Assembly: GCA_030632085.1 (NCBI GenBank)
Contig: DAOVJY010000002.1
Span: 77,325 to 141,324, forward strand
Direction of reading: 5' to 3'
From: Candidatus Omnitrophota bacterium
Lineage (GTDB): Bacteria; Omnitrophota; Gorgyraeia; JAGLLT01
Length of the DNA: 64,000 bases
The number at the start of each line of letters is the position of its first letter. Within the stretch, counting starts at the first letter, position 1. Below the pieces are notes generated by a model. That model was given only the letters and a program-made list of their open reading frames with translations, had not been told where the DNA came from and searched no databases. Positions 1 to 22,305 of this stretch are shown here, one piece after another. A program made the position numbers and the translations under genes.

Positions 1-1
1 C

Positions 2-958
2 ATGGAGATGCCAGCCTTAACGACAGAAGATATTGAGCAAATCAGTAATCAAATTACCGATGATGATAAACGCGGAAAGATTCGCGAGGTTGGCGGCTGC
101 GATTTTGGTTTTAGTTTTGGTAAGAATCGTTTTAGAGCGTCAATTTTTAGAGAAAAGGGCGCGCTGGGAATTTCCTTGCGTCTTATTCCATCAAAACTTT
201 TTTCTTTGGAAGAGTTGGGTTTATTGGGGAAAATTAAAGAACTTTTACATAGTGAAAGAGGCTTAATTTTGGTTACCGGCCCCACGGGTTCGGGCAAGAG
301 TACTACTTTGGCAACGATGGTTGATTATATAAATGAAAATATGCAAAAGCATGTAATTACTATTGAAGATCCAATTGAGTATTATCACTCCCATAAAAAG
401 AGTATTATTACTCAGCGGGAGGTCGGGGTTGATGTGCCTTCATTTTCTGAAGCGATTGTAAGAGGCTTGAGAAGCGACCCCGATGTTATTTTAGTTGGTG
501 AAATGCGAGACTTAGCAACTATCCAGGCGGCACTTTTAGCGGCCGAAACCGGACATTTAGTGCTCGCGACTTTACATACTATAAACGCGCCTCAGACAGT
601 AGACAGGGTTATCAACTCATTCGCGGTTCATCAGCAGGAACAGGTTAGGACACAGCTTTCAGCGACAATTTTAGCGGTTTTATCACAAAAACTTATTGTT
701 AAAAAATCGGGCCGGGGACGGGTGGCTTGTTTTGAAATTATGGTTAGTACTTCCTCAATTCAGAGCCTGATAAGAGAAAGGAAAACTTTCAGAATTTCTT
801 CCGAGCTTCAGACCGGATCTAAATACGGCATGAAACCTTTTGATTCCTCGCTTATAGAACTATGTGAGCGGGGCATTATTTCAAAGGAAGCGGCGTTGGT
901 AAACGCGTTTGATAGGGAGCAGTTTGAGTCAATGTATCGTGAAAGGATAGGTAAATAA
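2..958 (+). CDS. pilT: Type IV pilus retraction ATPase PilT (5' end outside window)
   Basis: Walker A GPTGSGKSTT, Asp box DPIEY, Walker B ILVGEMRD and His box ETGHLV; the C-terminal region is PilT-like. The ORF is open at the window start. Confidence 0.85.
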   Translation: MEMPALTTEDIEQISNQITDDDKRGKIREVGGCDFGFSFGKNRFRASIFREKGALGISLRLIPSKLFSLEELGLLGKIKELLHSERGLILVTGPTGSGKSTTLATMVDYINENMQKHVITIEDPIEYYHSHKKSIITQREVGVDVPSFSEAIVRGLRSDPDVILVGEMRDLATIQAALLAAETGHLVLATLHTINAPQTVDRVINSFAVHQQEQVRTQLSATILAVLSQKLIVKKSGRGRVACFEIMVSTSSIQSLIRERKTFRISSELQTGSKYGMKPFDSSLIELCERGIISKEAALVNAFDREQFESMYRERIGK

Positions 959-960
959 TT

Positions 961-2688
961 ATGACCGATGATTTTCTGAGAAGAAAACCATTAGGTGAAA
1001 TTCTTTTTGATCAGGGTATAATCAGCCAGGAGCAATTAGATGAAGCGCTTGAAGACCAGAAAAAAAGCGGCCGGTTATTAGGTAGAATCCTGGTTGAATT
1101 TGGCTTTGTAAAAGAGGAAAGAATTCTGGAAGCTCTCGGTATTCAGATTGGTATGAAGGTTACTAATCTGGCCGACATGAATATACCCGAAGAAGTCATT
1201 AAGCAAGTGCCTTCTTCATTAGCTCAGGTTTATAATGTAGTTCCCGTTAAAATTGAAAATAATATTATTACCGTAGCCCTATCAGACCCGCTTAATATAA
1301 ACGTTTTGGATGATTTAAGATTTGTTTTGAATTGTGAAGTTCAGGGAGCAATTGCCATGGAGGAAGATATTAACGAGGCTATAGAAAAATATTACGGGGT
1401 TACTACTCAGGAAGATTCCCTCAATGCTCTGGTTCAGGAAATAGAAAAAAGTACTCCCACGGTTTTATCGGCTGAAATTCAAGAGATGCAGGATATTACC
1501 AGTTTAAAAGAGCTCGCCTCCCAGGCTCCGGTTGTAAAGCTGGTTAACCTGGTTCTTTTGCAGGCCGTAAAAGATACGGCCAGTGATATTCATTTCGAAC
1601 CTTTTGAAGATGAATTTAAAGTCCGTTATCGTGTTGACGGTGTTTTATATGAAATAACCCGTCCTCCTAAGAATCTTAGTTTGGCCATAACTTCCAGAAT
1701 AAAAGTTATGGCCGGCCTGGATGTAGCTGAAAGCCGAATTCCTCAGGATGGTAGGATTATGATGCGTGTAGCCGGTAGAGGTATTGACCTGCGCGTTTCT
1801 ACTTTACCGACCGTTTTTGGAGAAAGTGTGGTTATGCGTGTTTTAGATAGAAGCGTAATCAGTTTAGATTTGGATCAAGTCGGCCTGACAACCGAGCAGC
1901 AGGACATCGTTAAGAAACTTATCAGTAAACCTAACGGTATTATTCTTGCAACCGGCCCCACCGGCTGCGGCAAAACAACTACGCTTTATTCCTGCTTAAG
2001 GGAAGTTAATAAAATTGAATATAAGATTATTACAACTGAAGATCCGGTTGAATATGATATTTCCGGGATTATCCAGGTTAGTATTAAGCCTAAAATTAAC
2101 CTGACTTTTGCCGCGTGCTTAAGGCATATATTAAGACAGGACCCGGATATTATAATGGTTGGTGAAATTCGCGATAAAGAAACGGCCCAAATAAGTATAC
2201 AAGCCTCATTGACCGGCCACCTGGTATTTTCTACTTTACACACTAATGATGCTCCGGGAGCGGTTACCCGATTAATTGACATGGGCATTGAGCCTTTCTT
2301 AATATCTTCAACCCTTGAGTCGGTTGTCGCTCAGAGGTTGATACGTGTTCTATGCCCTAAGTGTAAAGAGGCCTATGTGCCGGATGAATATGAACTATCC
2401 CAGATTAATCTTTCTCAGGATAAGGCCGCGGATAAGACATTTTATCGGGCCAAAGGCTGCCATGAATGTAATGATATTGGTTATAGAGGCAGAACCGGAA
2501 TATTTGAAATACTGATAATGACTGATAAAATCAGAACTCTTATTATGGATAAATCCCATACGGCTCTTTTAAGAAAAGCGGCCATTGAAGGCGGTATGCG
2601 TACTTTAAGAGATGATGGCCTACTTAGAGTATATGACGGTTTAACTACTATAGAAGAAGTTATCAGGGAAACTCAAGGGTATTCTTAA
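961..2688 (+). CDS. pilB: Type IV pilus assembly ATPase PilB/GspE
   Basis: 575 aa with a GSPII_E N-terminal domain, Walker A GPTGCGKTTT and a C-terminal tetracysteine motif CPKC...CHEC. It follows pilT directly. Confidence 0.9.
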   Translation: MTDDFLRRKPLGEILFDQGIISQEQLDEALEDQKKSGRLLGRILVEFGFVKEERILEALGIQIGMKVTNLADMNIPEEVIKQVPSSLAQVYNVVPVKIENNIITVALSDPLNINVLDDLRFVLNCEVQGAIAMEEDINEAIEKYYGVTTQEDSLNALVQEIEKSTPTVLSAEIQEMQDITSLKELASQAPVVKLVNLVLLQAVKDTASDIHFEPFEDEFKVRYRVDGVLYEITRPPKNLSLAITSRIKVMAGLDVAESRIPQDGRIMMRVAGRGIDLRVSTLPTVFGESVVMRVLDRSVISLDLDQVGLTTEQQDIVKKLISKPNGIILATGPTGCGKTTTLYSCLREVNKIEYKIITTEDPVEYDISGIIQVSIKPKINLTFAACLRHILRQDPDIIMVGEIRDKETAQISIQASLTGHLVFSTLHTNDAPGAVTRLIDMGIEPFLISSTLESVVAQRLIRVLCPKCKEAYVPDEYELSQINLSQDKAADKTFYRAKGCHECNDIGYRGRTGIFEILIMTDKIRTLIMDKSHTALLRKAAIEGGMRTLRDDGLLRVYDGLTTIEEVIRETQGYS

Positions 2689-2840
2689 ATGAATAAGATA
2701 GTTAAGGCTGGTAGCTTGTATTTGATAATTGTTGTGCTTAAACTAAAACATCCCGCATACTGCGGGATTTAATTCTGGCAAATTACTTACATTCGCTTAC
2801 GCTCTGTAAGTAATGCCCTCATTAAAGGAGGTAACCGAAA

Positions 2841-4127
2841 TTGCCTAAATTTGAATATAAAGCTATAGATCCTAACGGTAGAGAAATTTCAGGTGTTGTT
2901 GATGTCGGAACTACGCAAGAAGCTGTTTCTAAAATAAAAAATAAAGGGTTTTATCCGACACAGATAAACGAAGTAAAAAAAGAACAAGCTCAGAAATCTC
3001 CCGGAGCGGCTGCTGCTGCCGCGCCTGCCGCGCAAAAAAAAAGCGGACTTAATGCTGAATTATGTATTCCTTTTCTGGGCATAGGTACTGTTAAAAATGT
3101 TGATGCCGCGATTTTCACCAGGCAGTTGGCCACGTTAATTGAAGCCGGCCTTCCTTTGGTAAGAAGTTTAAATGTTTTGTATGATCAGCTAAAATCCGGG
3201 CCCTTAAAAAGTATTATATCTAATCTTTCAAAAGACGTTTCCTCCGGAGGTACTTTAAGTGAATCTCTGGCCAAGTACCCTAGGGTTTTTAACCATCTTT
3301 ATGTCAATATGATCAAGGCCGGTGAGGCCGGCGGCATACTTGAACTTGTTTTAGAAAGATTAGCTGAGTTTCAGGAAAAAAACATGGCCTTGACTCAAAA
3401 GGTAAAATCAGCCCTTACTTATCCGGCTTTGGTTGTTGTTTTCTCAGCCGGCGTTCTTTTGTTTTTAACCACCTATATTATTCCCAAATTTATGGGTATT
3501 TTTGAGAATATGGATGTTGGTGAAATGCCGGGCATTACTAAATTTGTTATGATTATGAGTTCGCTTATAAGGGATAAATGGTATATCGGTGTCGGCCTTA
3601 TGGTTTTGGCTATTGTCGCTCTTAAAGTACTAAATAGCTTTAAGAATAGTAAATTTTTCATAGATAAGTTTAAACTGCGTATTCCCGTAGCGGGAGACTT
3701 AACTAAAAAAATAGAAGTATCCAGATTTTCCAGAACTCTGGGTACTCTTATTTCCAGCGGTGTTCCTATCTTGCAGGCTTTACGAATCACACGGGGAATA
3801 ATGAGTAACGAAGTCATGCGCAGGGCTCTCAAGCGTGTTCATGATAGTATCCGCGAAGGTGAATCTATAGCCGGCCCCTTAAAAGCCAGCGGAGCTTTTC
3901 CGCCCATGGTTGTGAATATGATAGATGTTGGTGAAGAAACCGGTTCTTTGGATACCATGCTCAATAAAGTCGCTGATATTTATGATACTGATGTTGATGC
4001 CACGGTAGACGCCTTGACTTCAATCATTGAACCATTTTTGATTGTCAGTATGGGTGTTATTGTAGGTTTCCTGGTAATTTCTATGTTCCTGCCGCTCTTT
4101 AAACTTATGGCTTCATTATCCGCTTAA
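2841..4127 (+). CDS. pilC: Type IV pilus inner-membrane platform protein PilC/GspF
   Basis: 428 aa with two GspF-type repeats and three TM segments. TTG start follows the SD AAAGGAGG. Confidence 0.85.
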   Translation: MPKFEYKAIDPNGREISGVVDVGTTQEAVSKIKNKGFYPTQINEVKKEQAQKSPGAAAAAAPAAQKKSGLNAELCIPFLGIGTVKNVDAAIFTRQLATLIEAGLPLVRSLNVLYDQLKSGPLKSIISNLSKDVSSGGTLSESLAKYPRVFNHLYVNMIKAGEAGGILELVLERLAEFQEKNMALTQKVKSALTYPALVVVFSAGVLLFLTTYIIPKFMGIFENMDVGEMPGITKFVMIMSSLIRDKWYIGVGLMVLAIVALKVLNSFKNSKFFIDKFKLRIPVAGDLTKKIEVSRFSRTLGTLISSGVPILQALRITRGIMSNEVMRRALKRVHDSIREGESIAGPLKASGAFPPMVVNMIDVGEETGSLDTMLNKVADIYDTDVDATVDALTSIIEPFLIVSMGVIVGFLVISMFLPLFKLMASLSA

Positions 4128-4144
4128 AGAGCCGGTTGTTGGTT

Positions 4145-4173
4145 TTGGACATAGTTTAAGAATGTGGTATAAT
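4145..4173 (+). promoter_or_regulatory. Sigma-70-type promoter TTGGAC-N17-TATAAT upstream of the pilin gene array
   Basis: -35 TTGGAC at 4145-4150, a 17-nt spacer and -10 TATAAT at 4168-4173, about 20 nt upstream of the first pilin ATG. Confidence 0.55.
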
Positions 4174-4192
4174 ACGTTATAGAGGTATATGT

Positions 4193-4618
4193 ATGAAAAA
4201 CAACGCTTTTACTATAGTTGAATTAATGATTGTACTCATTATTATGGGTATTCTGATGGGGCTTACCGTAGGAGGAGCTATGAAGATTCTGCAGGAGGCC
4301 AAAAAAGGGCAGGCGGAGGCTGATATAGGTGCTCTTGAATCGGCTGTATCCAGGTATGAAAGGGATATTGGTAGTTATCCCCCTGATTCAGCTAACGGTT
4401 TATGGTATTATCTTGAGGATGATAGATCAGGAGATCCAACCGGTTGGGAAGGCCCTTATATTGATTTTGATGACGGTAGGACTTCAGATAATAATTATGA
4501 AGACCCCTGGGATAATAATTATCAGTATGATTGCACAAGTGTAACTAGGCACAATCTTGACTTTGTAGACATATGGACGACAGTTCCAAGTACAGGGGAT
4601 ACAATAGGCAATTGGTAA
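4193..4618 (+). CDS. GspG-type pseudopilin / major pilin paralog 1
   Basis: Prepilin N-terminus MKNNA|FTIVELMIVLIIMGIL, and GspG hallmarks DIGSYP, WEGPYI and DPWDNNYQY. The C-terminal tail is rich in aromatic and acidic residues. Confidence 0.8.
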   Translation: MKNNAFTIVELMIVLIIMGILMGLTVGGAMKILQEAKKGQAEADIGALESAVSRYERDIGSYPPDSANGLWYYLEDDRSGDPTGWEGPYIDFDDGRTSDNNYEDPWDNNYQYDCTSVTRHNLDFVDIWTTVPSTGDTIGNW

Positions 4619-4632
4619 AGAGGGTGTTTTAA

Positions 4633-5118
4633 ATGATATATAGTAATAAAAAGGCTTTTACATTAGTTGAAATGATAACTGTGATGGTTATTGTCGGTAT
4701 TTTATTAGGGCTTGTGCTAACGGGTTCTTTTAACGCGATTAAGGAAGCTCGAATTGAAAAAGCTAAAGCGGCAATGAAGGCGACTAAGGCGGCGTTAGAG
4801 ATGTTTGAATCGGATATTGGTGATTATCCCGTATATACAAATACATCCGGTAATGGAAATGATTTTAAGTCTTGGTTGATGAATGGGGATCATGCAACCG
4901 GTAATTATGACAACTGGTATGGGCCTTATATGAGTTTTATAGATGCTGAAATTTTAAGTAACACTCATTATTTGGATCCCTGGGGAAACGGTTATAGATA
5001 TTATCATGTAGCGGATACGGATGGCTATAATCTTTGGTCGTCCGGGCCGGATGGAAATAATGACAGCCTTGATGGTGAAAGCGGTATAATCGGAGATGAT
5101 ATAGGTAGTTGGGACTGA
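4633..5118 (+). CDS. GspG-type pseudopilin / major pilin paralog 2
   Basis: KKA|FTLVEMITV N-terminus; motifs DIGDYP, WYGPYM and DPWGNGYRYY; SD AGAGGG. Confidence 0.8.
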   Translation: MIYSNKKAFTLVEMITVMVIVGILLGLVLTGSFNAIKEARIEKAKAAMKATKAALEMFESDIGDYPVYTNTSGNGNDFKSWLMNGDHATGNYDNWYGPYMSFIDAEILSNTHYLDPWGNGYRYYHVADTDGYNLWSSGPDGNNDSLDGESGIIGDDIGSWD

Positions 5119-5123
5119 TAGAT

Positions 5124-5636
5124 ATGAAAAAAATAAAAGCTTTTACATTGATAGAGTTATTAATGGTAATGGTAATTATCGGTATTTTAGCTTCCCTGAT
5201 TACTACCGGGGCTTTTAGGTCTATAAGGGGTGCTCGGGAAAGCAAAGCACAGTCTGATATAGCGGCCCTGGAAACGGCCATTGAGAGATATAAATTAGAT
5301 GTGGGCGTATATCCTCCGGGAGACGGTTCAGGCAACAGCTTTAAGTACTACCTGCAGGATGACAGGAGTGTCGATACAACCGGCTGGAATGGGCCTTACA
5401 TGATTTTTAAAGCTAAGGATTTAAATGTTAACGCTTTTGTTGATCCCTGGGGAAGTGATTATAGATATTATCATGATCAGCTCACCACAGGGAAAGCGTA
5501 TTTGCATACCTACCCGGATACGCATATCACTCAAAATCCAATTGATATATGGTCTATTGGCGAAAACAAAACAGATGATGTAGAAACGACTAATTATATT
5601 AACACAGATGATGATATATACAGCTGGGGGGATTAG
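5124..5636 (+). CDS. GspG-type pseudopilin / major pilin paralog 3
   Basis: MKKIKA|FTLIELLMV N-terminus; motifs DVGVYP, WNGPYM and DPWGSDYRYY. ATG at 5124 is preferred over the ORF-track start at 5109. Confidence 0.8.
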   Translation: MKKIKAFTLIELLMVMVIIGILASLITTGAFRSIRGARESKAQSDIAALETAIERYKLDVGVYPPGDGSGNSFKYYLQDDRSVDTTGWNGPYMIFKAKDLNVNAFVDPWGSDYRYYHDQLTTGKAYLHTYPDTHITQNPIDIWSIGENKTDDVETTNYINTDDDIYSWGD

Positions 5637-5648
5637 TTGGTGATTAAT

Positions 5649-6179
5649 ATGAAAAAGAAATCTTTCACTCTTTTAGAGATGATGGTTGTCTTGGTTATTA
5701 TTTTTATAATAACAGCGATTGCGATGCCTAATTTCTGGGGAGGCTATAAGAGCAAGGAGGTTAAAGGTTCCGCGAGGAGAGTTGCCTCTATTTTAAGTAC
5801 CGCTAAAAGCTATGCCCAAGCTCAAAATACGCAGTATGATGTTGTTTTTTGGTATGGCGATAGTTTTCTTAGTATGGATATTTATAAAGAGTTTGATCCT
5901 TGGACTGAAGCGAGTTGGGATCGTAAAGTTGGAAAATCTGAAAAATTCAATTTTACGAAAGTTGGAATTAGTACTATAATTGATACACCCATTACTACAC
6001 CCATCAGCAATTATGCCTGGATATCATTCTATTCCGATGGGCGCGCTGATGATCATGATGCTAATCTTCCGGAAGATGAAGAGATTGTTTTTACGCTTGA
6101 TGTCGGTGGAACCCCCAAAACCCTTACAATATATATCAATGAAAACACCGGCTGTATAAGAGTTGGTGATTTAGAATAA
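5649..6179 (+). CDS. GspH-like minor pseudopilin
   Basis: MKKKS|FTLLEMMVVLVII prepilin N-terminus; about 175 aa, the size of GspH/FimT. ATG 5649 is preferred over TTG 5637. Confidence 0.65.
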   Translation: MKKKSFTLLEMMVVLVIIFIITAIAMPNFWGGYKSKEVKGSARRVASILSTAKSYAQAQNTQYDVVFWYGDSFLSMDIYKEFDPWTEASWDRKVGKSEKFNFTKVGISTIIDTPITTPISNYAWISFYSDGRADDHDANLPEDEEIVFTLDVGGTPKTLTIYINENTGCIRVGDLE

Positions 6180-6236
6180 TTGATTGCATATTTTCTTGCC
6201 TTTTTTATTTCCTCATGATATAGTTAGCTCCGCGTT

Positions 6237-6713
6237 ATGAGGAATTCAAGTTTAAAATCATCTTTCACTATAATTGAGCTGGTAGTCTGCCTGGTTATTG
6301 TGGGTACTATTTCAGCGGTAACTTTGCCGTATTGTTGGGGCGCTTACAGGTCTGCTGAAGCTAAGACTTCCGCCCGTGTTGTTGCTTCAATATTAAGAAG
6401 CACAAAAGAGAGTGCCCGGGCTCAAGGTAAGAAATATGAGATTATTTTTGCAGCTTGTGATAATAATCTTAATATTGATGTCTATACCAACTTATCAGAA
6501 GTTAATCCTTTGAAAGTAGGTAAGACCGAGAAACTATCCTTAAGCGGTTCATATGAATTTAGAATAACATTTTATAATGATAAAGCCATCTTTACTTCTT
6601 TTGGGACTTCTAACGGAGGGTCTGTTTATATTACTGATACTTCTACAGGCAAAGGTTATAGGATAAGTGTGTTATCAACCTCCGGCAGGGTTAAAGTGCT
6701 GGCTTTTGATTAA
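6237..6713 (+). CDS. GspH-like minor pseudopilin (second copy)
   Basis: SS|FTIIELVVCLVIVG N-terminus. It shares the core ARVVASIL..A with the previous gene, so it is a paralog. Confidence 0.6.
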   Translation: MRNSSLKSSFTIIELVVCLVIVGTISAVTLPYCWGAYRSAEAKTSARVVASILRSTKESARAQGKKYEIIFAACDNNLNIDVYTNLSEVNPLKVGKTEKLSLSGSYEFRITFYNDKAIFTSFGTSNGGSVYITDTSTGKGYRISVLSTSGRVKVLAFD

Positions 6714-6745
6714 TAGCGGTTAGATTTATTTTTCTTTTCTTATCA

Positions 6746-6774
6746 TTGATAAGTTTTGTAACTTGTGGTATTAT
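6746..6774 (+). promoter_or_regulatory. Candidate sigma-70 promoter TTGATA-N17-TATTAT
   Basis: Read directly from the sequence, upstream of the GspI-like gene. Confidence 0.4.
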
Positions 6775-6835
6775 ATACAGTAGAGATAGTATGCATTAAG
6801 TGAATATAATATTTTTTTTAGGAGGTTTATAAAAA

Positions 6836-7198
6836 ATGAGAAAAAAACAAGGGTTCACTCTTTTAGAAATAGTTATTGCTTTGGCTATATTAGCTATCGG
6901 CCTTGTTGGTATTTTAAGCCTTTTTCCGGTAGGTTTTGAGGCCTCAAGAAGGGCCAGTATGCTTACGGAGGCAACTATCCATGCTCAGCAAAAAATGGAA
7001 GAGTTTAAGCGAATCGGCTATGATGGCCTTTTTGATACAAATTACGCGGCATTTTCTGATAATAGTGGTTTGGAATGGAAGGTTACGGTTGTAGAAATAG
7101 ATCCTCTCGGGAATTTAAAAAGCGTAACTCTCGATATTCAATGGCAGGAGAAAGGGGACAATAAGAGTGAGACATTTGTTACTTATATCGCCAAGTAA
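6836..7198 (+). CDS. GspI/PilV-like minor pseudopilin
   Basis: MRKKQG|FTLLEIVIALAIL N-terminus; 120 aa, the size of GspI. Confidence 0.65.
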   Translation: MRKKQGFTLLEIVIALAILAIGLVGILSLFPVGFEASRRASMLTEATIHAQQKMEEFKRIGYDGLFDTNYAAFSDNSGLEWKVTVVEIDPLGNLKSVTLDIQWQEKGDNKSETFVTYIAK

Positions 7199-7817: not shown

Positions 7818-7914
7818 TTTTGAGAGCATCTATTCAAATAATCAAGAAGTTACGCGGTAAATATGGCATTAACGGCTATGAAGAGAAGTTTCTAAATAAT
7901 CTAAGGTGGTAGAT

Positions 7915-10344: not shown

Positions 10345-10355
10345 AGGAGCAGGAT

Positions 10356-11453: not shown

Positions 11454-11637
11454 ATAAATATAAGTTTAAACATTTTCTATAATAAAAAAAAGTTACCGGA
11501 ATTTTAAAGGGAATCAATTTTCTGTTGCTAAAATATACCCCCGTTTTCGGTGTTCAAAAAGCAGTGAATTTCTTAAGCGCATGCGTGAATGTGAAACGTT
11601 GATGAAATAGCGCCTCCCATCTAATAACCAATTTAAA

Positions 11638-11666
11638 TGTTGATTAACAAAAGAGTTTATTGTATA
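11638..11666 (+). promoter_or_regulatory. Sigma-70-type promoter TTGATT-N17-TATAAT upstream of pilM
   Basis: -35 at 11638-11643, a 17-nt spacer and -10 TATAAT at 11661-11666; pilM starts at 11717. Confidence 0.5.
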
Positions 11667-11716
11667 ATTACATTGATTTGTTTTAGCGATTAACACTTTG
11701 GAGATGATATAAACAA

Positions 11717-13375
11717 ATGGCAATTAAGAATTTAATCGGGCTAGATATAGGCCATAGCGCGGTCAAGTTAATAAAATTTAAGAAAGTCCGCAATAAAATA
11801 CAGCTTGAGAAGGCCCGAGTGGTTGAACTGCAAGATGGTGTTTCCCCTTCAGCGGCAATAGCCGCGCTTTTTAAAAGTGAACGATTAGGCGCTTGCAAAA
11901 TAGCTATATCCGTTTCAGGCCAGTCTGTTTTTACGCGCTATACAAAGCTTCCTAAAATATCCCAGAAAAAGATTGAACAAGTAGTTAAATATGAAGCCCA
12001 GCAGCAGATTCCTTTTCCGATTGATAAGGTTGTTTGGGATTATCAGCTATTTAAAATATCTAAAGGCTCTCAGTTGGAAGTTTTTCTGGCTGCCGTTAAG
12101 AAAGACATTATAGATAATTTATATCGCCAGGTAAACGCGATTAAAGGAGCTGAAGTTGTTTCTGTGCAGCCCGCGCCGGTAGCTCTTTATAATATACTTA
12201 ATTTTAATAAAGAAATAAACGATAAAACGGTTATTTTAGATATTGGAGCTAATGTTACCAGCGCTATCATTGCTAAAGGCAGGCAGTTGTGGATAAGAAG
12301 TATACCTATGGGCGGGGCCGAGTTAACCAGGGTTATAGGTGAAAGCCTGGCTTTAAAACCTCAGGAAGCGGAGATTTTAAAACGTAAAGAAGGTATCGTG
12401 TTGGCGGGTGTTACCGGTGATGAAGACCTGACTCCAAGGTCAGACGCGATTTCAAAGGCTATTAGTCCCGTGTTAAGTGAACTTTTATCGGAAGTTTCAC
12501 GTTCTATTAGTTATTATAAATCTCAATTTGATAAAGAAGCGGTTTTTGAGAAAGTGCTGCTGACAGGCGGCGGTTCTAAGATACGTTATATCGAAAGATT
12601 TTTTGAAGCTAACCTGAAGATAAAGACAGAAAAAGTCAATCTTTTTAAAAATTTAACCACTAATAAATACGTAAAAGCTAACATTGATGACATTGATGAT
12701 CGCTTGGCGGTTGCTATGGGCTTAGCCCTCCCGGGAGTAGAAACGCCGACTATTAATTTAAATTTGATTTCTGATCAACAAAGGAAGCTCAAAGACTTTT
12801 CAAAGAAGAAAGTATATATTACCAGCTCCGCGTTAATTGCTCTCGGTATTTTTGCCATGCTGAGTTTATGCAATGCGCAGGGAGTGAATTCAGCTGCCGG
12901 CAATCTTAAAGCTATATCTCTTGAAATGAATAAATACCGTGATAATCAAGTAACAATAAATGAGTTGCAAAACAGTATCAAGGCTGTAAAACTAAAGTTA
13001 AACTTTTTAGGAGATATTACTAAAGACAGAACAATCTGGCTGAATATATTATCAAGAATAAACGGTTCTTTGCCGGGGGATACTTGGTTAATCAGGTTTA
13101 GCACCGACGCGAATGAACCTAATATTATTATTTTAGAAGGTAAAACAACCGGCCCTTTTGATACAATTAAAAACTTCGGGGAAAAGCTTCTTAGCCTTGG
13201 GTTTTTTTCCGGCGTTGAAACTTTGCGGGCTGACAGGCCGTCGGCTGAAGAAGAAGAGTTAGGCGAGCCGTACAATATAGTGTTTACTTTAAAGTTGATG
13301 TTGAAAAACCCGGCTTCTAATTTTTTCATAAGAAAAGAACCTGTAGCCGCGGAAAACAAAAGAATTAAAAGATGA
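11717..13375 (+). CDS. pilMN: PilM-PilN fusion protein (actin-like ATPase fused to a TM coiled-coil domain)
   Basis: N-terminus LIGLDIGHSAVKLIK is a PilM/FtsA-like fold. An internal TM helix VYITSSALIALGIFAMLSLC at about aa 365 is followed by a PilN-like periplasmic region. Confidence 0.75.
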   Translation: MAIKNLIGLDIGHSAVKLIKFKKVRNKIQLEKARVVELQDGVSPSAAIAALFKSERLGACKIAISVSGQSVFTRYTKLPKISQKKIEQVVKYEAQQQIPFPIDKVVWDYQLFKISKGSQLEVFLAAVKKDIIDNLYRQVNAIKGAEVVSVQPAPVALYNILNFNKEINDKTVILDIGANVTSAIIAKGRQLWIRSIPMGGAELTRVIGESLALKPQEAEILKRKEGIVLAGVTGDEDLTPRSDAISKAISPVLSELLSEVSRSISYYKSQFDKEAVFEKVLLTGGGSKIRYIERFFEANLKIKTEKVNLFKNLTTNKYVKANIDDIDDRLAVAMGLALPGVETPTINLNLISDQQRKLKDFSKKKVYITSSALIALGIFAMLSLCNAQGVNSAAGNLKAISLEMNKYRDNQVTINELQNSIKAVKLKLNFLGDITKDRTIWLNILSRINGSLPGDTWLIRFSTDANEPNIIILEGKTTGPFDTIKNFGEKLLSLGFFSGVETLRADRPSAEEEELGEPYNIVFTLKLMLKNPASNFFIRKEPVAAENKRIKR

Positions 13376-14160
13376 AATTTTTTAAAGAACTGCTTCAGAG
13401 AAATTTAATATTTTTTATTGTAACAGCCTTACTGTTATTAGTGGTTGTTGCCGCCGGGGTTAATTTTGCTTCCGGCCTTGGAAAGAAATATTCCCTGGAC
13501 GGTAAAATCCAAAAAGAAATGCGGCTTTTAGATAATTTCAAAACGATAAAGGACGCGGCTCCAACTTTAAAATGGATAGATTATCTATCTAAAAAAGAAA
13601 AGCTTTTTGGTAAAATATATGTTGATGCCGGCTTACTGTATGATAAGCCGGCGTCTTTTATGCCAAAAGATATTATTGAACCTTTAAAATTCAAGGAAAA
13701 GATTTTTAAAAAGCAGAAGGAGATGCGTAAAAAGGCGTATTCCAGCCAGCTTGAATTAAAAGAAGAGGCTGTATCTTTTGGTTTTAAGGAATATGAAACC
13801 AAGATACCAACTGAAGCCGAAGTTCCAAATTTGACAAAAAAATTGGATATTATTCAAGAAGTAGTAAATCTTATGTGCCTCAGTCATATTGAGACCTTAT
13901 CTTCAGTTGAGTTTCTAACTCATAGAGATGACAAGTTGGAGACTATTCGGGGTAATATCAATTACAGAGTTTTTTCTTTAAGGCTTAGCGCAACCTCATC
14001 CGTGAAAAAATTGGTTGATTTATTATTCAAAATATCAACGTCGGATTATATATTTATAACCGAAGAATTAAATATCGCACAATCGGAAGATTTTAAGGAA
14101 AAAATAAATTCAAGTTTTGTTATTTCGTGCATAGTACTTATGGAGAGCGATGAAAAGTAA
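13372..14160 (+). CDS. PilO-like inner-membrane pilus assembly protein
   Basis: Single N-terminal TM helix LIFFIVTALLLLVVVAAGV followed by a soluble domain. Its position after pilMN and 4-nt overlaps with both neighbours support the call. Confidence 0.45.
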   Translation: MKFFKELLQRNLIFFIVTALLLLVVVAAGVNFASGLGKKYSLDGKIQKEMRLLDNFKTIKDAAPTLKWIDYLSKKEKLFGKIYVDAGLLYDKPASFMPKDIIEPLKFKEKIFKKQKEMRKKAYSSQLELKEEAVSFGFKEYETKIPTEAEVPNLTKKLDIIQEVVNLMCLSHIETLSSVEFLTHRDDKLETIRGNINYRVFSLRLSATSSVKKLVDLLFKISTSDYIFITEELNIAQSEDFKEKINSSFVISCIVLMESDEK

Positions 14161-14836
14161 TCCCTTATTATCCAATATAGAAAAAATAGTTTTCGGACTC
14201 TTGATTCTCATTTCATTAATTGTTATTGTAATCTATCAAGGGCGTATTTATATTAAAGATGAAACTATCAAAAATAAAATAGCCGGAGTTAAATTTAATT
14301 TACCTCCTGAAAAAATTGAAGGCGTTAAAGAATATAATGACTTAATCGCGCGGCTTAAGCGGTTAGATAGTTTTAGTAAATATGAAATCTATCTCGCGAG
14401 AAACGGTTTTCTGAAATATATTAAGCCGGTGCCCGAGATACCTCCATTTGAATTAAAGGCTGTCCGTAAAAAATATCTGGATGTGGAATATAGGGGTTTT
14501 ATAGAGTCTCTTTCGGGTACCGTTGCCCAGTTAAAGGTGAAAAACAGATCTTACTTCGTTAAAGAAGGCGATGAAATTGATGGCTATACAGTTAAAAAAG
14601 TATGTAATGATTATATGCTCATTAAAGATGGGGCCGGCGTTGAATACATATTGCCTTTAGGAGAAAAGATTTTAAGTAATGATTATGAGGCCGCGCTTTA
14701 CGTAAGTAAAACACATAAGACGGTTAAGGTAAAATTGGGTGATATTGTAAATGGCTTCAAAGTACTTGACATTTCACCTGAGAATGTGGTATTATATAAC
14801 CAAACTTATAATAAAAAACTAATTGTAGAGAAGTAA
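14150..14836 (+). CDS. PilP-like pilus assembly protein (putative)
   Basis: N-terminal TM helix IVFGLLILISLIVIVIY and a beta-rich C-terminal region. Its position between pilO and the secretin genes supports the call. Confidence 0.35.
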   Translation: MKSNPLLSNIEKIVFGLLILISLIVIVIYQGRIYIKDETIKNKIAGVKFNLPPEKIEGVKEYNDLIARLKRLDSFSKYEIYLARNGFLKYIKPVPEIPPFELKAVRKKYLDVEYRGFIESLSGTVAQLKVKNRSYFVKEGDEIDGYTVKKVCNDYMLIKDGAGVEYILPLGEKILSNDYEAALYVSKTHKTVKVKLGDIVNGFKVLDISPENVVLYNQTYNKKLIVEK

Positions 14837-14891
14837 CATAAGTGTGGACACAAGATGTTGCGATTAAGCTACTAAAAAAAGGAGAGTCTCA

Positions 14892-16001
14892 ATGTGCAGG
14901 CTTCTTAAAAAATTTACTGTATTAATTTGCTTAACTATAGTAATAGTCTTTGCTCTCAATAATATAGCCTATTCTCGAAGCAAAACAGACGCTGAAGATT
15001 TAGCCAAAAAGCTTGCTGTGCAGAAGAAGCTGGAGCAGGAAGAAAACGAGATATTGATAGATGGCCGTAATCAACGGGGCATTTATTATTTCAACAAAGG
15101 ATATTATAATGAAGCTATTCAGCAGTTTCATTTAGCCCTAGAGCTTGATCCCGGTAGTGCCGTAGCCAATGAATATCTCAATAAGGCATTGGAAAAACTT
15201 AGCAAGTCGGCTAAGAAGCATTATAAAAAGGGTGTGGCTTACTATAATAAGGGAGAAATGCAGAAATGTATTGATGAAATGTCTATGATACCCGTATGTT
15301 CTTCTTATTATCAAAAAGCGCAAGAGTATATTACATATTCTGATGAAGTATTGACCGAAGGTGCCGTTTATGGAATAAATAGCCCTAAAGCCGGAACACA
15401 GCACATTAAAGATCAAATGAGGCAAATGGACTCAGAGAAAGAGTTAGTTATGCTGCGCAAAAAAGCTCACGAGCAGCAACTCATGCTTGAAGTAGATTCA
15501 GCCTATTTACCCCCGGAATCATATGAAGAAGCAGCGGAGGAAGAAGCTATAAGCGCTGAAGAAATAGAAGAGCAGCAAAGAGAAGAAGCTCAGAAAAGAT
15601 TGCGGGCTAAGATGAATGAAAACATTGTTCCCGCTTTAAGTTTAAGTGATGCCGATATCAGAGATGTTATCAGGGAATTAGTTAAATTAACCGGTGTTAA
15701 TATCATTCTTGATGAAGGAGCTCTAAAGAAGGCATTAGAAGCCGGCATTATGACAGTGTCGTTTACTACCGTTACCCCCATGCCGCTTTTAGACTTATTA
15801 GATATTGCTTTAAAAACTTCCGATTTAACTTATAAAATGGAACCTACATATATATGGATCTCAGATAAAGAAACTATATATAAAGAAAACTTAGTCGTTA
15901 GGACTTATAAGCTTAAATATGGAGTAAGAAGCACTAGAAGTGTGCAGCTTACTCAATTTGGTGATGACGTGGATGATGACTTTGGTGATGATGATTTTTA
16001 A
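14892..16001 (+). CDS. Secreted TPR protein carrying a secretin/TonB N0-like (STN) domain with an acidic C-terminal tail
   Basis: Signal peptide and a TPR region (YFNKGYYNEAIQQFHLALELDP). The segment DADIRDVIRELVKLTGVNIILDEG...TVSFTTVTPMPLLDLLDIALKTSDLTYK matches the N0 domain of PilQ/GspD. The protein ends DDVDDDFGDDDF. Confidence 0.6.
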   Translation: MCRLLKKFTVLICLTIVIVFALNNIAYSRSKTDAEDLAKKLAVQKKLEQEENEILIDGRNQRGIYYFNKGYYNEAIQQFHLALELDPGSAVANEYLNKALEKLSKSAKKHYKKGVAYYNKGEMQKCIDEMSMIPVCSSYYQKAQEYITYSDEVLTEGAVYGINSPKAGTQHIKDQMRQMDSEKELVMLRKKAHEQQLMLEVDSAYLPPESYEEAAEEEAISAEEIEEQQREEAQKRLRAKMNENIVPALSLSDADIRDVIRELVKLTGVNIILDEGALKKALEAGIMTVSFTTVTPMPLLDLLDIALKTSDLTYKMEPTYIWISDKETIYKENLVVRTYKLKYGVRSTRSVQLTQFGDDVDDDFGDDDF

Positions 16002-16014
16002 CCTATAAAAGGCT

Positions 16015-17190
16015 ATGATAAGAAGAAAAATATTTATTATTATTCTGTTAGTATTAGTTTCAAGTAATGTTTGCTACGCGCAGGAAGGCATGAGTGTTAA
16101 GGAGTATTTAGAAGAAGCCCTTCCTTCTCAAGCCGGCAGAAAAATAGTTCTTGATAGAACTAGCGGTATTCTAACTGTAACCGATACTCCCTCTAATCAC
16201 AAACTTATCAGGCGTTTGATTGGGGAATTTGATGTTGGCCCGACTCAGGTTATGATTGAGGCTCGTTTTGTTGAGGTAAAAATTAACAATTTAGAAGAGT
16301 TGGGTACAGAGTTTTACTGGTACCAGCAAGGTGACGCTTCGGATGGTAGGATATTTAGAAGCCTTGAGGTGGGAGATGCTCCCGGTTTATATGATAGAGG
16401 CGCGTCGAGTTTCAGTGAGAGTTTAGAGACAACTGCCGACGGTATTCAATGGGGCTCTTACGATTCATCAGGTAATTACGAAGGTTTTCCGGCTGAAGGA
16501 TATGGAGCTGATTTTTTCTTTGGAAAAACCGGGTATGATGGAAATTTCTTAAGAGCTTATATACATGCTTTGGAAGAAAAAGGCAAGGCTAATACTCTTT
16601 CAGCTCCAAAGATTATGACAATGGCGGGCCAAATGGCTACTATGGAAGTTACCAGAACTTTTCCTTACGTAAGCAAGGTTGAACTTGAAAACCAAGGAAC
16701 TGCTGATGACCCGATTTGGAACTTAAAAACAACTATAGAAGAAAAGACTATTGGTATTTCACTGGAAGTTACTCCTCATGTGGCTTCCGGAAGCAAATTT
16801 ATAACTTTAGATTTACATCCTGAAGTTAATGTTTTATTAGATCAAAGGTCGATAAGACCATCTGTTGAAACAACATATTTTGATTTTGAGGATGGCGAGT
16901 ATATTTATTGGTCGAGGACTGTCCCAGGTATTCCAGATTCTGTAGGTTGGCCGACAGTAGATACCAGGTCTACGCAGACAACCGTAGTTACTCAAAGCGG
17001 CAGGACAATAATACTTGGCGGCATGATACGAGAAGAAGAGTCTGTAACGAACAAAAGCATTCCTATATTAGGAAGTATTCCCATATTAGGAAATTTGTTC
17101 AAATATAAACATGTTGAGAAGGAAAAAACAAATTTACTTATTTTTATTACCGCGACATTAATATCACCTGAAGGTGAAGAGATTAAATAA
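16015..17190 (+). CDS. Short secretin (PilQ/GspD family core), paralog 1
   Basis: Signal peptide; N1/KH-like domain (VMIEARFVEV); secretin C-domain motifs LSAPKIMTMAGQMATMEV and IPILGSIPILGNLFKYKHVEKEKTNLLIFITATLI. Only 391 aa, with no N0 domain. Confidence 0.85.
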   Translation: MIRRKIFIIILLVLVSSNVCYAQEGMSVKEYLEEALPSQAGRKIVLDRTSGILTVTDTPSNHKLIRRLIGEFDVGPTQVMIEARFVEVKINNLEELGTEFYWYQQGDASDGRIFRSLEVGDAPGLYDRGASSFSESLETTADGIQWGSYDSSGNYEGFPAEGYGADFFFGKTGYDGNFLRAYIHALEEKGKANTLSAPKIMTMAGQMATMEVTRTFPYVSKVELENQGTADDPIWNLKTTIEEKTIGISLEVTPHVASGSKFITLDLHPEVNVLLDQRSIRPSVETTYFDFEDGEYIYWSRTVPGIPDSVGWPTVDTRSTQTTVVTQSGRTIILGGMIREEESVTNKSIPILGSIPILGNLFKYKHVEKEKTNLLIFITATLISPEGEEIK

Positions 17191-18350
17191 TGAAAAAAAT
17201 AATAGTAATATTTTTTATTTTAAGTTTAATGTTAATTTCAATAAAAGTTGTCTCGGCTCAGGACGCGGATACCATTAAAGATTTTTTAGAACAAGTTTTG
17301 CCTCCGCAGCCGGGCAGAAAGATTGTTTTAAATTCCGCGACAGGGATGTTGACTGTAACAGACACGCCTTCAAATCACAAACTGGTAAGAGAACTCCTTG
17401 GAAAGTGGGATATTGGCCCGAGGCAGATATCAATAGAAGCTAAATTTGTTGAAATTTCTGAAGGTGTTTTAAATGAGTTGGGAATTGAATGGTATGGTAC
17501 CAGAAGCGATACTCAGCATCAGGTTGGTGTTGAAAGGCGAAAAAAGAAGCATAATTTTTATGTAGGCCAAGGACCAACAAGTGGTACAGGTAACGCGCAA
17601 CTAAGACCACCGGTATACGACCAAAGTACATCTGGCGCCTCAGCGGCGACAGATTATAGATATGATTCGTCATGGCCAACACCTCCCTGGAGCGGCACTG
17701 AATGGGGCGCCCCGGCAGATCCCGCGGGTTTGGGATTGTGGGTAGGAAAATCTTACCTTTCAGGTACTGAATTGTACGCGTATTTAAGGGCCCTTGAATC
17801 TGATAATAAAGTAGCTTTATTATCAGCGCCAAGAGTTACCACCTTATCAGGTCAGATGGCTAATATAGAATTAGCAACTACACAGCCATATGCTTCGGAA
17901 GTAAACCTGACAGATACAGGCGCCAGTTCTTTTGGGCATTATCAAACATATGAAATTGAAGAGAAGAAGACGGGTATATTTCTTGAGGTTACTCCCTCTG
18001 TTGCTGAAGGGGGTAATATTGTAACTCTTGATATACATCCGGAAGTTAGTGAAGTTGTCAGAAAAGTACCTTTATCAGATAGTACTCAATTCCCCAGTTA
18101 CTTAGGATGGCCTATTGTTGATATGCGCACAACTCAGACTACGGTTGCCGTAAGAAGCGGCCAAACTATCGTTATTGGCGGCCTTATGCAGGATAGTGAA
18201 GTCATGATAGAGCGTAAGGTACCTATTTTGGGTAGTATTCCAATATTGGGTAACTTATTCAAATATAAGTATGAGGAAAAAGAAAAAACTAACTTAGTAA
18301 TATTTTTAAAAGCGACTATAATTTCCGCCGACGGCAAGGAAGTTAAATAA
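17190..18350 (+). CDS. Short secretin (PilQ/GspD family core), paralog 2
   Basis: Same architecture as paralog 1 (ISIEAKFVEI, LSAPRVTTLSGQMANIEL, VPILGSIPILGNLFKYKYEEKEKTNLVIFLKATII), with a divergent, Gly/Pro/Trp-rich central insertion. Confidence 0.85.
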   Translation: MKKIIVIFFILSLMLISIKVVSAQDADTIKDFLEQVLPPQPGRKIVLNSATGMLTVTDTPSNHKLVRELLGKWDIGPRQISIEAKFVEISEGVLNELGIEWYGTRSDTQHQVGVERRKKKHNFYVGQGPTSGTGNAQLRPPVYDQSTSGASAATDYRYDSSWPTPPWSGTEWGAPADPAGLGLWVGKSYLSGTELYAYLRALESDNKVALLSAPRVTTLSGQMANIELATTQPYASEVNLTDTGASSFGHYQTYEIEEKKTGIFLEVTPSVAEGGNIVTLDIHPEVSEVVRKVPLSDSTQFPSYLGWPIVDMRTTQTTVAVRSGQTIVIGGLMQDSEVMIERKVPILGSIPILGNLFKYKYEEKEKTNLVIFLKATIISADGKEVK

Positions 18351-18661
18351 TGAAAAAAAAGTGCTTGAAGTTTTTAATTTGCTTGTTAATTGTTCATATA
18401 ATTAGCTTTGCGGGAATAGCTGAAAAGGCCGCGGCCGCTGAGGACAACAGCAAAATTAAACTTACAACGTGTGACTTGCATAAGCCTTATATTATTAGAG
18501 GCCTTGTTCATGTAAGAACGGGGCAACCTGACCTTAATAAAATTGATGAAATGTTGATAAAGGAGGCCAAAAAACTTGATGCCGATTGTATTATCGGTGT
18601 CGGTTATATGGAAGCATACGGATATCTTTTTGGTTATGGTACAGCCGTTAAGGTAAAATGA
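18350..18661 (+). CDS. Small secreted protein with a YbjQ/UPF0145-like C-terminal fold
   Basis: Signal peptide MKKKCLKFLICLLIVHIISFAG; C-terminal ADCIIGVGYMEAYGYLFGYGTAVKV resembles the UPF0145 core. Confidence 0.3.
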   Translation: MKKKCLKFLICLLIVHIISFAGIAEKAAAAEDNSKIKLTTCDLHKPYIIRGLVHVRTGQPDLNKIDEMLIKEAKKLDADCIIGVGYMEAYGYLFGYGTAVKVK

Positions 18662-18807
18662 TTCTGCATCGAAATAACTAACCTTTTTAAATCCCAAAAA
18701 ACTTATAAAAGTAGATATTATTTCAACCTCCCTTTTAGATAAATGTTTATATATATTGATGAACCTGAAAGCAACTGGATTAGTTATATAAAGGAGAATT
18801 ATTAATC

Positions 18808-19623
18808 TTGCGGTTTGCTAAAGTAAAGTTAATCATTTTTATTATTTTCCTTTTATTATTTTCAAATTTCAATCTTTGTTATGCTAATGATCATCAAAAA
18901 ATAAGAAAAAATTTACCGCAAGCGCTTCAAAGGATGCACTTTATCATTTATCACAATGACAAGTCTTGCGCTAATAAAGTCAGCTGGAAAGCCGAGTATA
19001 GCTATAAAAGAATAATTAGGCATTTTGGTATAGATGGTTTTCGGCCATGGGAAAAGAAAAATAAGTGCCATATATATTTATTTGAAAACAGGGATGATTA
19101 CATAAGGTTATCGGGAGCTCCTTCGTGGTCAGGTGGTTGCGCGATGGATAATCCTCCGAGATTGTTTATATATAAAGGCGCGCCAAAGCTTATCGAAAAC
19201 ACACTGCCCCATGAAATTACTCATTTGATATTTCATTTATTGATTCCCGGAAAAAGAATACCTTTATGGTTAGATGAAGGCATGGCTCAATATGAAGAGA
19301 AAGACTGGGATACCGGGTATATTAAGGGATATTTAAAAAAACATATTAATGAGGGGATATATATTCACTTTGATGAACTCTTTTCTTTAAAAAATTACCC
19401 AAACGATCAGGAGAAATTAAGTCTTTTTTACGCGGAATCAGCCAGCATTATTGATTACCTCAGGAAGCAGCAAATCGCTTCTTTATATGGAGATTTTATT
19501 TTAAAAATAAGGAACGGAAAAAGTGTCGACCGGGCACTTAAAGAAACATATCACCCAAAGTTTAAAAATGGTATTGTTGATTTAGAAAAATATTGGCTTA
19601 AATATGTCAAAACCAGATACTAA
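18808..19623 (+). CDS. Secreted zinc metallopeptidase, Peptidase_MA-like
   Basis: Signal peptide; HExxH (LPHEITHLIFH) followed by WLDEGMAQYEE, the EGxAxY third-ligand motif. Confidence 0.5.
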   Translation: MRFAKVKLIIFIIFLLLFSNFNLCYANDHQKIRKNLPQALQRMHFIIYHNDKSCANKVSWKAEYSYKRIIRHFGIDGFRPWEKKNKCHIYLFENRDDYIRLSGAPSWSGGCAMDNPPRLFIYKGAPKLIENTLPHEITHLIFHLLIPGKRIPLWLDEGMAQYEEKDWDTGYIKGYLKKHINEGIYIHFDELFSLKNYPNDQEKLSLFYAESASIIDYLRKQQIASLYGDFILKIRNGKSVDRALKETYHPKFKNGIVDLEKYWLKYVKTRY

Positions 19624-22297: not shown

Positions 22298-22305
22298 AGG
22301 GTGAT

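Follow-up and report, generated by a model that had tools for sequence, protein, structure and literature searches.

What kind of machine is encoded where genes named after type II secretion systems (T2SS) stand side by side with the hallmarks of a retractile type IVa pilus (T4aP)? The question is raised by a locus of a Candidatus Omnitrophota bacterium, in a stretch of 64,000 nucleotides (hereafter the window; contig DAOVJY010000002.1 of assembly GCA_030632085.1, positions 77,325 to 141,324), where 20 open reading frames (ORFs), all on the + strand and most of them abutting or overlapping by a few bases, fill positions 2-19623. The original prediction saw here a self-contained hybrid of pilus and secretion system. 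Nearly every gene in its co-directional list of parts was borne out by Pfam, NCBIfam, structure prediction and synteny, and GspG-type subunits do occur together with PilT and a full PilM; it is the words self-contained and hybrid that have to be given up. We think, with a probability of about 70%, that the locus is the Omnitrophota version of a T4aP-like pilus machine of the Planctomycetes, Verrucomicrobia and Chlamydiae (PVC) superphylum, and that its most likely function is that of a retractile adhesive pilus.

The motors carry a good part of this reading. The window begins within the gene of a PilT retraction ATPase (2-958, the C-terminal 318 of 355 residues; TIGR01420 391 bits), the first 37 codons of which lie upstream, and the full-length protein of 355 residues (L002 8931-9998) reaches 426 bits against a cut-off of 319; its motif SIQSLIRE, which is AIRNLIRE-like, can be read directly off the sequence. 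Next comes a PilB-type assembly ATPase of 575 residues (961-2688; T2SSE 471 bits) with an N-terminal MshEN domain (69 bits) and its motif for cyclic di-GMP (c-di-GMP; NF053729 70 bits, cut-off 38). Its best solved relative is PilB of Myxococcus xanthus (3jc8, 547 bits), matched over the full length with MshEN included, and it scores 533 bits with Geobacter PilB against 460 bits with Vibrio cholerae EpsE. This ATPase is the second of two paralogs, and the other one, 570 residues long and 46% identical to it, precedes PilT outside the window (L002 7206-8918); the c-di-GMP motif of the upstream paralog is degenerate (25 bits against 70 bits). The inner-membrane platform protein (2841-4127; T2SSF 221 bits, two repeats) is of the PilC/GspF family and ambiguous as to subtype, with 402 bits for GspF and 399 bits for the Thermus-type PilC, both under their cut-offs. 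The two ATPases lie above the NCBIfam cut-off for GspE (649 and 641 against 630) and slightly under that for PilB (641 and 622 against 675), and such near-equal scores place ATPases and platform protein roughly equidistant from both reference families. With PilT over its family cut-off and an ATPase architecture that is PilB-like rather than GspE-like, the motors are, as far as profiles and domain order can tell, of the T4aP type. Since the upstream ATPase and the start of PilT precede the window, the operon begins in the order PilB1-PilT-PilB2-PilC, which is the same in the related locus L006, and beyond PilB1 there are phoU/pho4 and unrelated genes. The locus is thus not self-contained: it continues upstream, is without PilD, and has additional pilin genes at 54.8-55.7 kb.

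Three pilins follow, and the suggestion that they are GspG-type and not PilA-type was correct (Pfam T2SSG 40-46 bits against 21, with PulG and GspG as the best solved relatives). G1 (4193-4618, 141 residues, 46.5 bits against the gathering threshold of 21) has orthologs in L006 and L086 and is a candidate for the major subunit, G2 (4633-5118, 161 residues) reaches 40.3 bits, and G3 (5109-5636, with ATG 5124 as the likely start) reaches 46.4 bits and shares the GspG motifs in the alignment. In the PDB, G2 is matched best by PulG 5wda and GspG 2kep, and the match takes in the DPWG..Y..Y block near the C-terminus. In an alignment, the three pilins and their orthologs from two other species have W..GPY and DPW..Y.Y in common and end in a DI(G/N)xW-like motif, and the aligned proteins are without a cysteine pair, so that a PilA-type disulfide-bonded major pilin was not found among them. 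The NCBIfam GspG scores (62-71 bits) lie below the equivalog cut-off of 88.85, and motifs and profiles together still class G1-G3 as GspG-type, not PilA-type.

The minor pilins are less clear-cut. An H/H/I/J/K set had been proposed, and while the K fold was confirmed by structure prediction, as described below, the H, H, I and J members gave only sub-threshold matches to hidden Markov models (HMMs). H1 (5637-6179; N_methyl 28.9 bits) is GspH/FimU-like, with 42 bits for TIGR01708 GspH (cut-off 80) and 39 bits for Verru_Chthon cassette D. H2 (6237-6713), which is 80% identical to its ortholog in Ca. Kappaea frigidicola, is GspH/ComGD-like (ComGD 26 bits and GspH 24 bits, both sub-threshold). The PilV/GspI-like pilin (6836-7198; N_methyl 36.8 bits) scores 32 bits for PilV, 30 for XpsI and 22 for GspI, all sub-threshold, and the GspJ/PilW-like one (7167-7817) has 25.4 bits for T2SSJ against a gathering threshold of 28; the Kappaea ortholog of the latter matches PF11612, and the N-terminus of the window protein matches Verru_Chthon cassette C. 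The GspH and GspI matches are mostly N-terminal, and the same proteins match the PilV and Verru_Chthon cassette models. Two further pilin-like genes, for 137 and 136 residues (54821-55234 and 55254-55664; N_methyl, with ComGC-like and GspG N-terminal matches), are found 35 kb downstream of the locus and close upstream of tRNA-Cys/Leu/Val. The second of them has a canonical KKG|FTLVELMIV site, and it could be the real major pilin or part of another filament.

Immediately before the prepilin cleavage site, 6 of the 7 locus pilins (4193-7817) and 5 of the 6 readable pilin N-termini of Ca. Kappaea (L086 2415-6121) have Ala or Ser, and all L006 pilins (5244-9825) have Gly, which suggests a lineage-specific change of peptidase specificity.

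The next group of genes connects the locus to the PVC bacteria. The fusion of PilM and PilN (11717-13375, 552 residues), which had been named as such from the start, was recovered with PilM_2 PF11104 (131 bits, residues 8-338) and with the Amuc_1101 family (NF045709, 294 bits, E 2e-87, residues 45-463, under the equivalog cut-off of 650), and its architecture is GspL-like. The PilN part is assigned through orthologs, which carry PF05137 PilN; one ortholog carries PF05134 T2SSL. The protein that directly follows (13372-14160, 262 residues, bitopic) had been called PilO-like, and here the label must be replaced: it is a member of the Amuc_1100 family (NF038287 E 5e-9, and a precomputed PF28028 match). 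A single-sequence search of the PDB with it gave nothing, but with the family profile almost the entire length aligns with 6lad and 6kny, crystal structures of Amuc_1100 (E 3e-18). It stands at the PilO position, and its equivalence to PilO is one of position and topology. The third gene (14150-14836, 228 residues, bitopic) is conserved in all Omnitrophota loci that were compared and is probably PilP/GspC-like, by its position and by a weak but consistent similarity at E about 1e-4 (GspC_delta E 1.3e-4, 21.8 bits against a cut-off of 150; pilP_fam E 3e-3; both sub-threshold); its family profile had no match in the PDB. Pfam searches at E up to 10 gave no usable match for the PilN-like region, the Amuc_1100-like and PilP-like proteins, or a protein of 103 residues described below.

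How widespread this arrangement is was examined by scanning one genome per species with the PilM-PilN alignment, and matching the window proteins to the ORFs of the loci found. Relatives of PilM-PilN occur in at least 574 species, mostly of the PVC group, and the best 80 species belong to Omnitrophota, Verrucomicrobiota, Kiritimatiellia, Lentisphaerae, Auribacterota and their allies. The protein itself is 82% identical to its counterpart in Ca. Kappaea frigidicola, and the next-best named relatives are Omnitrophota as well. Across these phyla the same order recurs, with PilM-PilN, an Amuc_1100-like protein, sometimes a PilP-like one, a secretin, polA (or a 5'-3' exonuclease), coaE and rho, and in several Verrucomicrobiota PilT-GspE-GspF are close by.

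It is against this background that a true chimera has to be judged, that is, a recent recombination of a T2SS pseudopilin block into a T4aP locus. The mixed HMM labels invite such a reading, with T2SSG, T2SSJ and T2SSK next to PilT and PilM. But relatives with 62% and 82% PilMN identity have this same gene order and the same three GspG-type paralogs, the GC content is uniform across the locus, and the pilin block has diverged in step with the other genes, the exception being the cassette of two genes treated in the next paragraph. Published phylogenies also make T4aP paraphyletic with the T2SS derived from within them, and it is known that "generic" systems with mixed profiles exist, including a chimeric-looking one in Chlamydiae (PMC6668835); mixed labels are therefore to be expected in deep-branching lineages. 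We regard a chimera as very improbable, the most improbable of the explanations considered. The two joined systems of the original prediction dissolve into one, since the same order and families recur in Omnitrophota and the PilMN-Amuc_1100-secretin-polA/coaE/rho core recurs across the PVC group, and GspG-type pilins together with PilT and PilM are a trait of the lineage and not a fusion of two systems.

The cassette consists of a large minor pilin and its neighbour. The pilin, K812 (7906-10344, 812 residues), is 2.5 times longer than the K protein of a canonical T2SS and gives a faint T2SSK match with sequence HMMs. Its AlphaFold2 model, made with 39 relatives (predicted local distance difference test, pLDDT, 77.8; predicted template modelling score, pTM, 0.80), has a confident N-terminal pilin helix and alpha/beta domain, for which the top Foldseek matches in the PDB are XcpX/GspK (9a1f_T at E 9e-8, 5vtm_X and 6utu_C; E 9e-8 to 1e-6). 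In the C-terminal half beta-strands prevail, and the matches there are to the globular domain of calreticulin, to legume lectins and VIP36, and to a carbohydrate-binding domain of a sialidase. The model thus confirms, at the level of predicted structure, a modular minor pilin in which an N-terminal half of GspK fold is fused to a ConA-like jellyroll lectin domain. Among 44 clusters of homologs conservation is confined to the N-terminal 40-55%, while the C-terminal halves vary, and orthologs carry Pfam T2SSK, HHH_3 (PF12836) and in some cases LamG matches. K812 is 35% identical to its Kappaea counterpart, compared with 73-92% for most other proteins of the locus and about 80% for its neighbours. 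The gene after it encodes an exported tetratricopeptide repeat (TPR)/helical protein of 365 residues (10356-11453), recognised by weak TPR matches and by its pairing with the GspK-like gene; this TPR protein is only 22% identical to its Kappaea counterpart. It always follows the K812 ortholog, and the pair is doubled in L015 (2262-9918) and missing from L006. The two genes (7906-11453) behave, in these comparisons, as one hypervariable cassette, and the divergence, loss and doubling of the cassette are what one would see in a recognition module that is exposed at the surface and has a partner of its own, and they argue against the pilotin label that the TPR protein had been given. We reject that label, because the N-terminal sequence of the protein is without a lipobox and because the protein co-varies with K812 instead of with the secretins. 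K812 is a candidate for a variable tip adhesin, which would sit at the end of the filament and may bind glycans.

A DNA-uptake pilus, mainly serving competence and capturing DNA with the helix-hairpin-helix (HhH) region of the GspK-like tip, would also make use of a PilT. HHH_3 is present in K812 orthologs, one of which is named a ComE-like DNA-binding protein in one source, and a weak match to the HhH of ComEA at K812 residues 147-205 was all that the GspK-like family profile found among PDB sequences. That region, though, belongs to the ordinary alpha-domain of GspK, as seen from the T2SSK Pfam match and the structural match to XcpX. No genes for ComEA, ComEC or DprA lie in or next to the locus, and glycans are the ligands suggested by the variable lectin-like domain. 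Competence as the main function is therefore, in our opinion, improbable, if not quite to the degree of a chimera.

The outer-membrane channel was first described as a three-gene secretin module. Two of the three are indeed secretins, and the third must be corrected to a TPR and N0 protein of 369 residues (14892-16001), which gives faint N0/STN HMM matches and ends in a beta-strand and an acidic tail. Its AlphaFold2 model (54 orthologs, pLDDT 79.5) consists of helical/TPR repeats, an N0-type fold at 245-331 and a disordered end at 335-369, and in the PDB Foldseek ranks the N0 domains of PilQ (4ar0) and LspD (7pmp) first; after them come STN-type domains and TPR proteins, PilF and BamD among them. 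In all of its 58 ortholog clusters the protein stands alone, is 356-454 residues long and is annotated as TPR or hypothetical. A search of 1.84 billion representatives with its alignment profile gave 61,862 matches, swamped by generic multi-TPR proteins, of which only the few single-stretch matches of about 360-480 residues were informative. The two secretins, Sec1 (16015-17190; PF00263 142 bits) and Sec2 (17190-18350; 149 bits), are short cores and 43% identical to each other. Sec1 consists of a signal peptide, a truncated N3-type domain and the secretin domain, and the first 8-13 positions of the Secretin_N profile are wanting in both (Sec1 matches 14-69 only, Sec2 9-69). Each of the split-secretin proteins has its own signal peptide, and TAATG stop/start overlaps couple the genes of Sec1, Sec2 and a fourth, exported protein of 103 residues (18350-18661). 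The last is YbjQ/SeBP-like by matches that are all weak (TIGR03884 E 1e-3, YbjQ_1 E 0.14, 2jz7 E 0.05), but it is found after Sec2 in 8 of the 8 Omnitrophota loci that reach this position, and has the conserved motif LTT.D...Y..G.V...GAD.VIGV.Y...GY.YAYGTAVK.K. No lipobox is present in TPR+N0, Sec1, Sec2 or the 103-residue protein, and the one element that resembles a pilotin is the TPR part of the N0 protein.

The sampled Omnitrophota loci that reach the region (L006, L008-L012, L014, L015 and L086/L087) have a TPR protein 365-460 residues long, a pair of secretins with about 360-400 residues each and a small protein of about 100-108, while outside Omnitrophota there is one secretin of about 700-1100 residues, with two full-length tandem copies in some sister lineages (Auribacterota, UBP3-type). 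If the 369-residue protein is concatenated with mature Sec1 or Sec2, the result is colinear with the unsplit PVC secretins and the junction has neither gap nor overlap. Where the chain is broken there is a loop, acidic and variable and about 30 residues long, between the conserved strand LVTRTYKLKYG and the helix that opens the N3-type domain, and the domain order TPR-N0-N3-secretin is that of the Amuc_1098-type single chain, but spread over 14892-16001, 16015-17190 and 17190-18350. In a neighbour-joining tree, the one kind of tree that was made, Sec1 and Sec2 form separate clades, with the species in the same order in both, so that the duplication predates the sampled Omnitrophota. Fission and duplication of a single TPR-N0-N3-secretin gene are shown by these comparisons, as read from the deduced proteins. 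An assembly or frameshift artefact was considered and rejected, given the separate signal peptides, the 58 clusters and the presence of the split in all sampled Omnitrophota loci.

Is the missing strand supplied by the other half? The C-terminal strand of TPR+N0 was prefixed to the mature secretin cores, and Secretin_N was rescored. For Sec2 the score rose from 36.0 bits (profile positions 10-69) to 50.2 bits (1-69) with the native strand, compared with 41.3 bits (2-69) with a scrambled one. Sec1 scored 31.1 bits alone (14-69), 32.2-33.7 bits with the native strand (from position 3 or 1, to 69) and 30.5 bits with the scrambled strand (14-69). A co-assembly of TPR+N0, Sec1 and Sec2, and donation of the strand in trans, could explain this. 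We therefore put forward, tentatively and at somewhat less than even odds, a hetero-oligomeric secretin of three components, in which Sec1 and Sec2 would co-assemble and the separate TPR+N0 protein would dock, possibly donating the first beta-strand of N3 and coupling the channel to the alignment complex, with the YbjQ-like protein as a fourth partner. To our knowledge it would be without precedent among secretins, both in having its ring-forming and N0 parts on different polypeptides and in having two paralogs as subunits of its pore.

Taken together, the parts suggest how the machine could work. Two PilB-type ATPases and PilT, the identities of which are given by their sequences, would share one PilC platform, on which they extend and retract a filament of pilins with the GspG fold, whose major subunit may be one of G1-G3 or the pilin at 55254. 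Assembly would be primed by a complex of the GspH/I/J/K-like minor pilins, and the K member would display its predicted ConA-like lectin domain at the tip as a variable adhesin. The PilM-PilN fusion, the Amuc_1100-family protein at the PilO position and the PilP-like protein probably make up the alignment complex, while the channel in the outer membrane would be built from the three separately exported polypeptides TPR+N0, Sec1 and Sec2. TPR+N0 probably links the PilP-like protein to the channel, and may donate the missing first strand of the N3-type domain of the secretins. We find it likely that the role of such a pilus is attachment to host, prey or particle surfaces, which fits the host-dependent lifestyle that has been proposed for the phylum.

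The main competitor to an adhesive pilus is a T2SS, as the sole function or as an added one, in which a short periplasmic pseudopilus of the GspG type with a GspH-K cap pushes folded exoproteins through the secretin. A natural substrate would be the secreted metallopeptidase that the original prediction had listed among the parts and that we recovered as an exported Peptidase_MA_2 protein with the motif HEITH (18808-19623; PF13485 45.8 bits); exported metallopeptidases adjoin the locus in several lineages. The pilins fit this as well, with their DPWG..Y and DIGNW-like motifs, and so do the GspK fold of K812, the GspL-like architecture of PilM-PilN with PF05134 in one ortholog, and the two ATPases that both pass the GspE cut-off. 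A PilT that is conserved and lies within the operon does not fit, nor does the PilB-type MshEN N-terminus of ATPases whose best full-length solved relatives are PilB, or a PilM domain of full length. A cap that is 812 residues long and includes a hypervariable lectin-like domain is more in keeping with a surface adhesin than with the tip of a periplasmic piston. The T2SSL, T2SSM and T2SSC Pfam models had no match at E up to 10, in a search that took in the PilN-like region and the Amuc_1100-like, PilP-like and 103-residue proteins, and the GspC, GspL and GspM models all stayed below their thresholds, so that a GspC/GspL/GspM platform was not found. The peptidase, which is present and often in two copies in L006, L009, L012, L061 and L086, is absent from four Omnitrophota loci (L010, L011, L014 and L015); it is a facultative neighbour and a possible substrate or accessory of the machine. 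Protease secretion that depends on type IV pili occurs in other bacteria. All in all a T2SS is unlikely, but it deserves more attention than either competence or a chimera.

Some points weigh against the T4aP-like adhesive pilus that we prefer. The ATPases and the platform protein score equally on the GspE/GspF and the PilB/PilC models, and a T2SS would be expected to have GspG-type pilins, a GspK-type cap and an adjoining exported peptidase. The assignment of the PilP-like protein is weak. As for the channel, the gain in the strand test is clear for Sec2 but small for Sec1 (+1 to +2.6 bits), and we know of no precedent for hetero-oligomeric secretins. A literature search for hetero-oligomeric or paralogous secretins returned no relevant paper, but its results were swamped by the hormone secretin and a precedent is thus not excluded; a search for Velamenicoccus and secretin returned no relevant paper either. 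To these must be added that no prepilin peptidase (Peptidase_A24, PilD) was found in the window, as had already been noted from the sequence, or in the 10 kb upstream. PilD is however frequently encoded elsewhere in the genome (PMC6668835).

The surroundings of the locus are of a different character. It is followed by polA, coaE and rho (19604-24192), and the rest of the window is housekeeping, with prfA, prmC, a murA-like gene, trmD, folD, panB and an Rnf operon, and also with pyrimidine synthesis genes, tRNA synthetases, three tRNAs and a 6S RNA. In most sampled PVC genomes (loci L006-L085) polA, or instead of it a stand-alone 5'-3' exonuclease, follows the secretin module together with coaE and rho, a striking conservation with no obvious functional link. 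The 6S RNA (63261-63415; Rfam RF00013, 68.6 bits) lies downstream of pheT, and an ORF of 272 residues between prfA and prmC (25739-26557) has no Pfam or NCBIfam match. All genes called in the window (1-64000) are on the + strand, the GC skew is positive throughout and the GC content is about 0.34-0.41. A scan of the locus for promoters and terminators gave counts not above those of shuffled controls. The best sigma-70-like site, TGGACA-16-TATAAT with an extended -10 TG (4146-4173), lies 20 nt upstream of the G1 gene and is a weak lead.

What the locus means is, in the first place, that the Omnitrophota share a pilus system that is common to the PVC group. Amuc_1100 is a much-studied host-active protein of Akkermansia. 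Its family occupies the PilO position in environmental bacteria as well, free-living or episymbiotic ones, which speaks for pilus assembly as the original task of the protein. With a secretin that nature has split and duplicated, the cooperation of N0, N3 and pore becomes open to tests, and so does the targeting of a secretin without a lipoprotein pilotin. Finally, the hypervariable minor pilin, with its putative lectin tip, is a concrete candidate for a host-recognition factor of the ultra-small, host-dependent Omnitrophota.

With canonical T4aP (Pseudomonas, Myxococcus) the locus shares an MshEN PilB, PilT, PilC and PilM, the gene order M-N-O-P-Q and a minor-pilin set of four or five members with a large tip protein. 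A PilQ-type secretin is there too, with secretin domains of 142 and 149 bits and an N0 that matches 4ar0, but it is spread over three genes. It differs from them in that the pilins are GspG-type without a disulfide-bonded D-region, PilM and PilN are fused, an Amuc_1100-family protein stands at the PilO position, and the putative adhesin is fused to the GspK-like pilin, where canonical systems have PilY1 as a protein of its own; the secretin is split and duplicated, and a lipoprotein pilotin was not found in the locus, the TPR region being on the N0 protein. Canonical T2SS (Klebsiella Pul, Pseudomonas Xcp) have in common with it the GspG-type subunit, the GspK fold, a GspL that the PilM/PilN fusion resembles, and an N0-bearing secretin region that is expected to contact a GspC/PilP-type HR domain. 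They differ in PilT, the three G paralogs, the two PilB/GspE paralogs and the MshEN-type N-terminus, in a GspC/GspL/GspM platform, for which no HMM matched here, and in the shorter K protein without a lectin-like domain. A secretin with a separately encoded periplasmic protein is known from the type IVb BfpB-BfpG of enteropathogenic Escherichia coli, at a stoichiometry of 17:17 near the N3 ring, but BfpG is an accessory partner and not a detached piece of the secretin, and the single secretin gene there keeps its own N0 (PMC12531336).

Within the phylum the class of system is known and catalogued, as T4aP were counted in nearly all Omnitrophota by TXSScan and are expressed in V. archaeovorus (Seymour et al. 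2023, PMC10066038). Those loci are of the same class, but they were recorded as presence or absence only, and the main text of that paper does not mention the word secretin and describes neither GspG-type pilins nor a lectin-fused GspK. In the literature searched we found no description of a split and duplicated secretin with a small partner, of a GspK-lectin cassette or of a fixed trio of GspG-type pilins, which is not proof of absence; these three features appear to be new.

The closest described system, since family assignments and synteny agree, is the Amuc_1098-Amuc_1102 cluster of Akkermansia, which has been described as a "type IV pili" cluster (PMC5332112, PMC10688800). The two are far from identical. 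The NCBIfam Amuc_* scores of the locus are far under the equivalog cut-offs (294 against 650, 36 against 180 and 33-142 against 750), the Akkermansia secretin is one protein of about 800 residues where here there are three, and here the ATPases, the platform protein and the full pilin set are contiguous with the module, unlike in Akkermansia. What they share is an Amuc_1101-family PilM-PilN, an Amuc_1100-family protein directly downstream of it and an Amuc_1098-related secretin, and the neighbourhood with polA/coaE/rho is the one found across PVC genomes.

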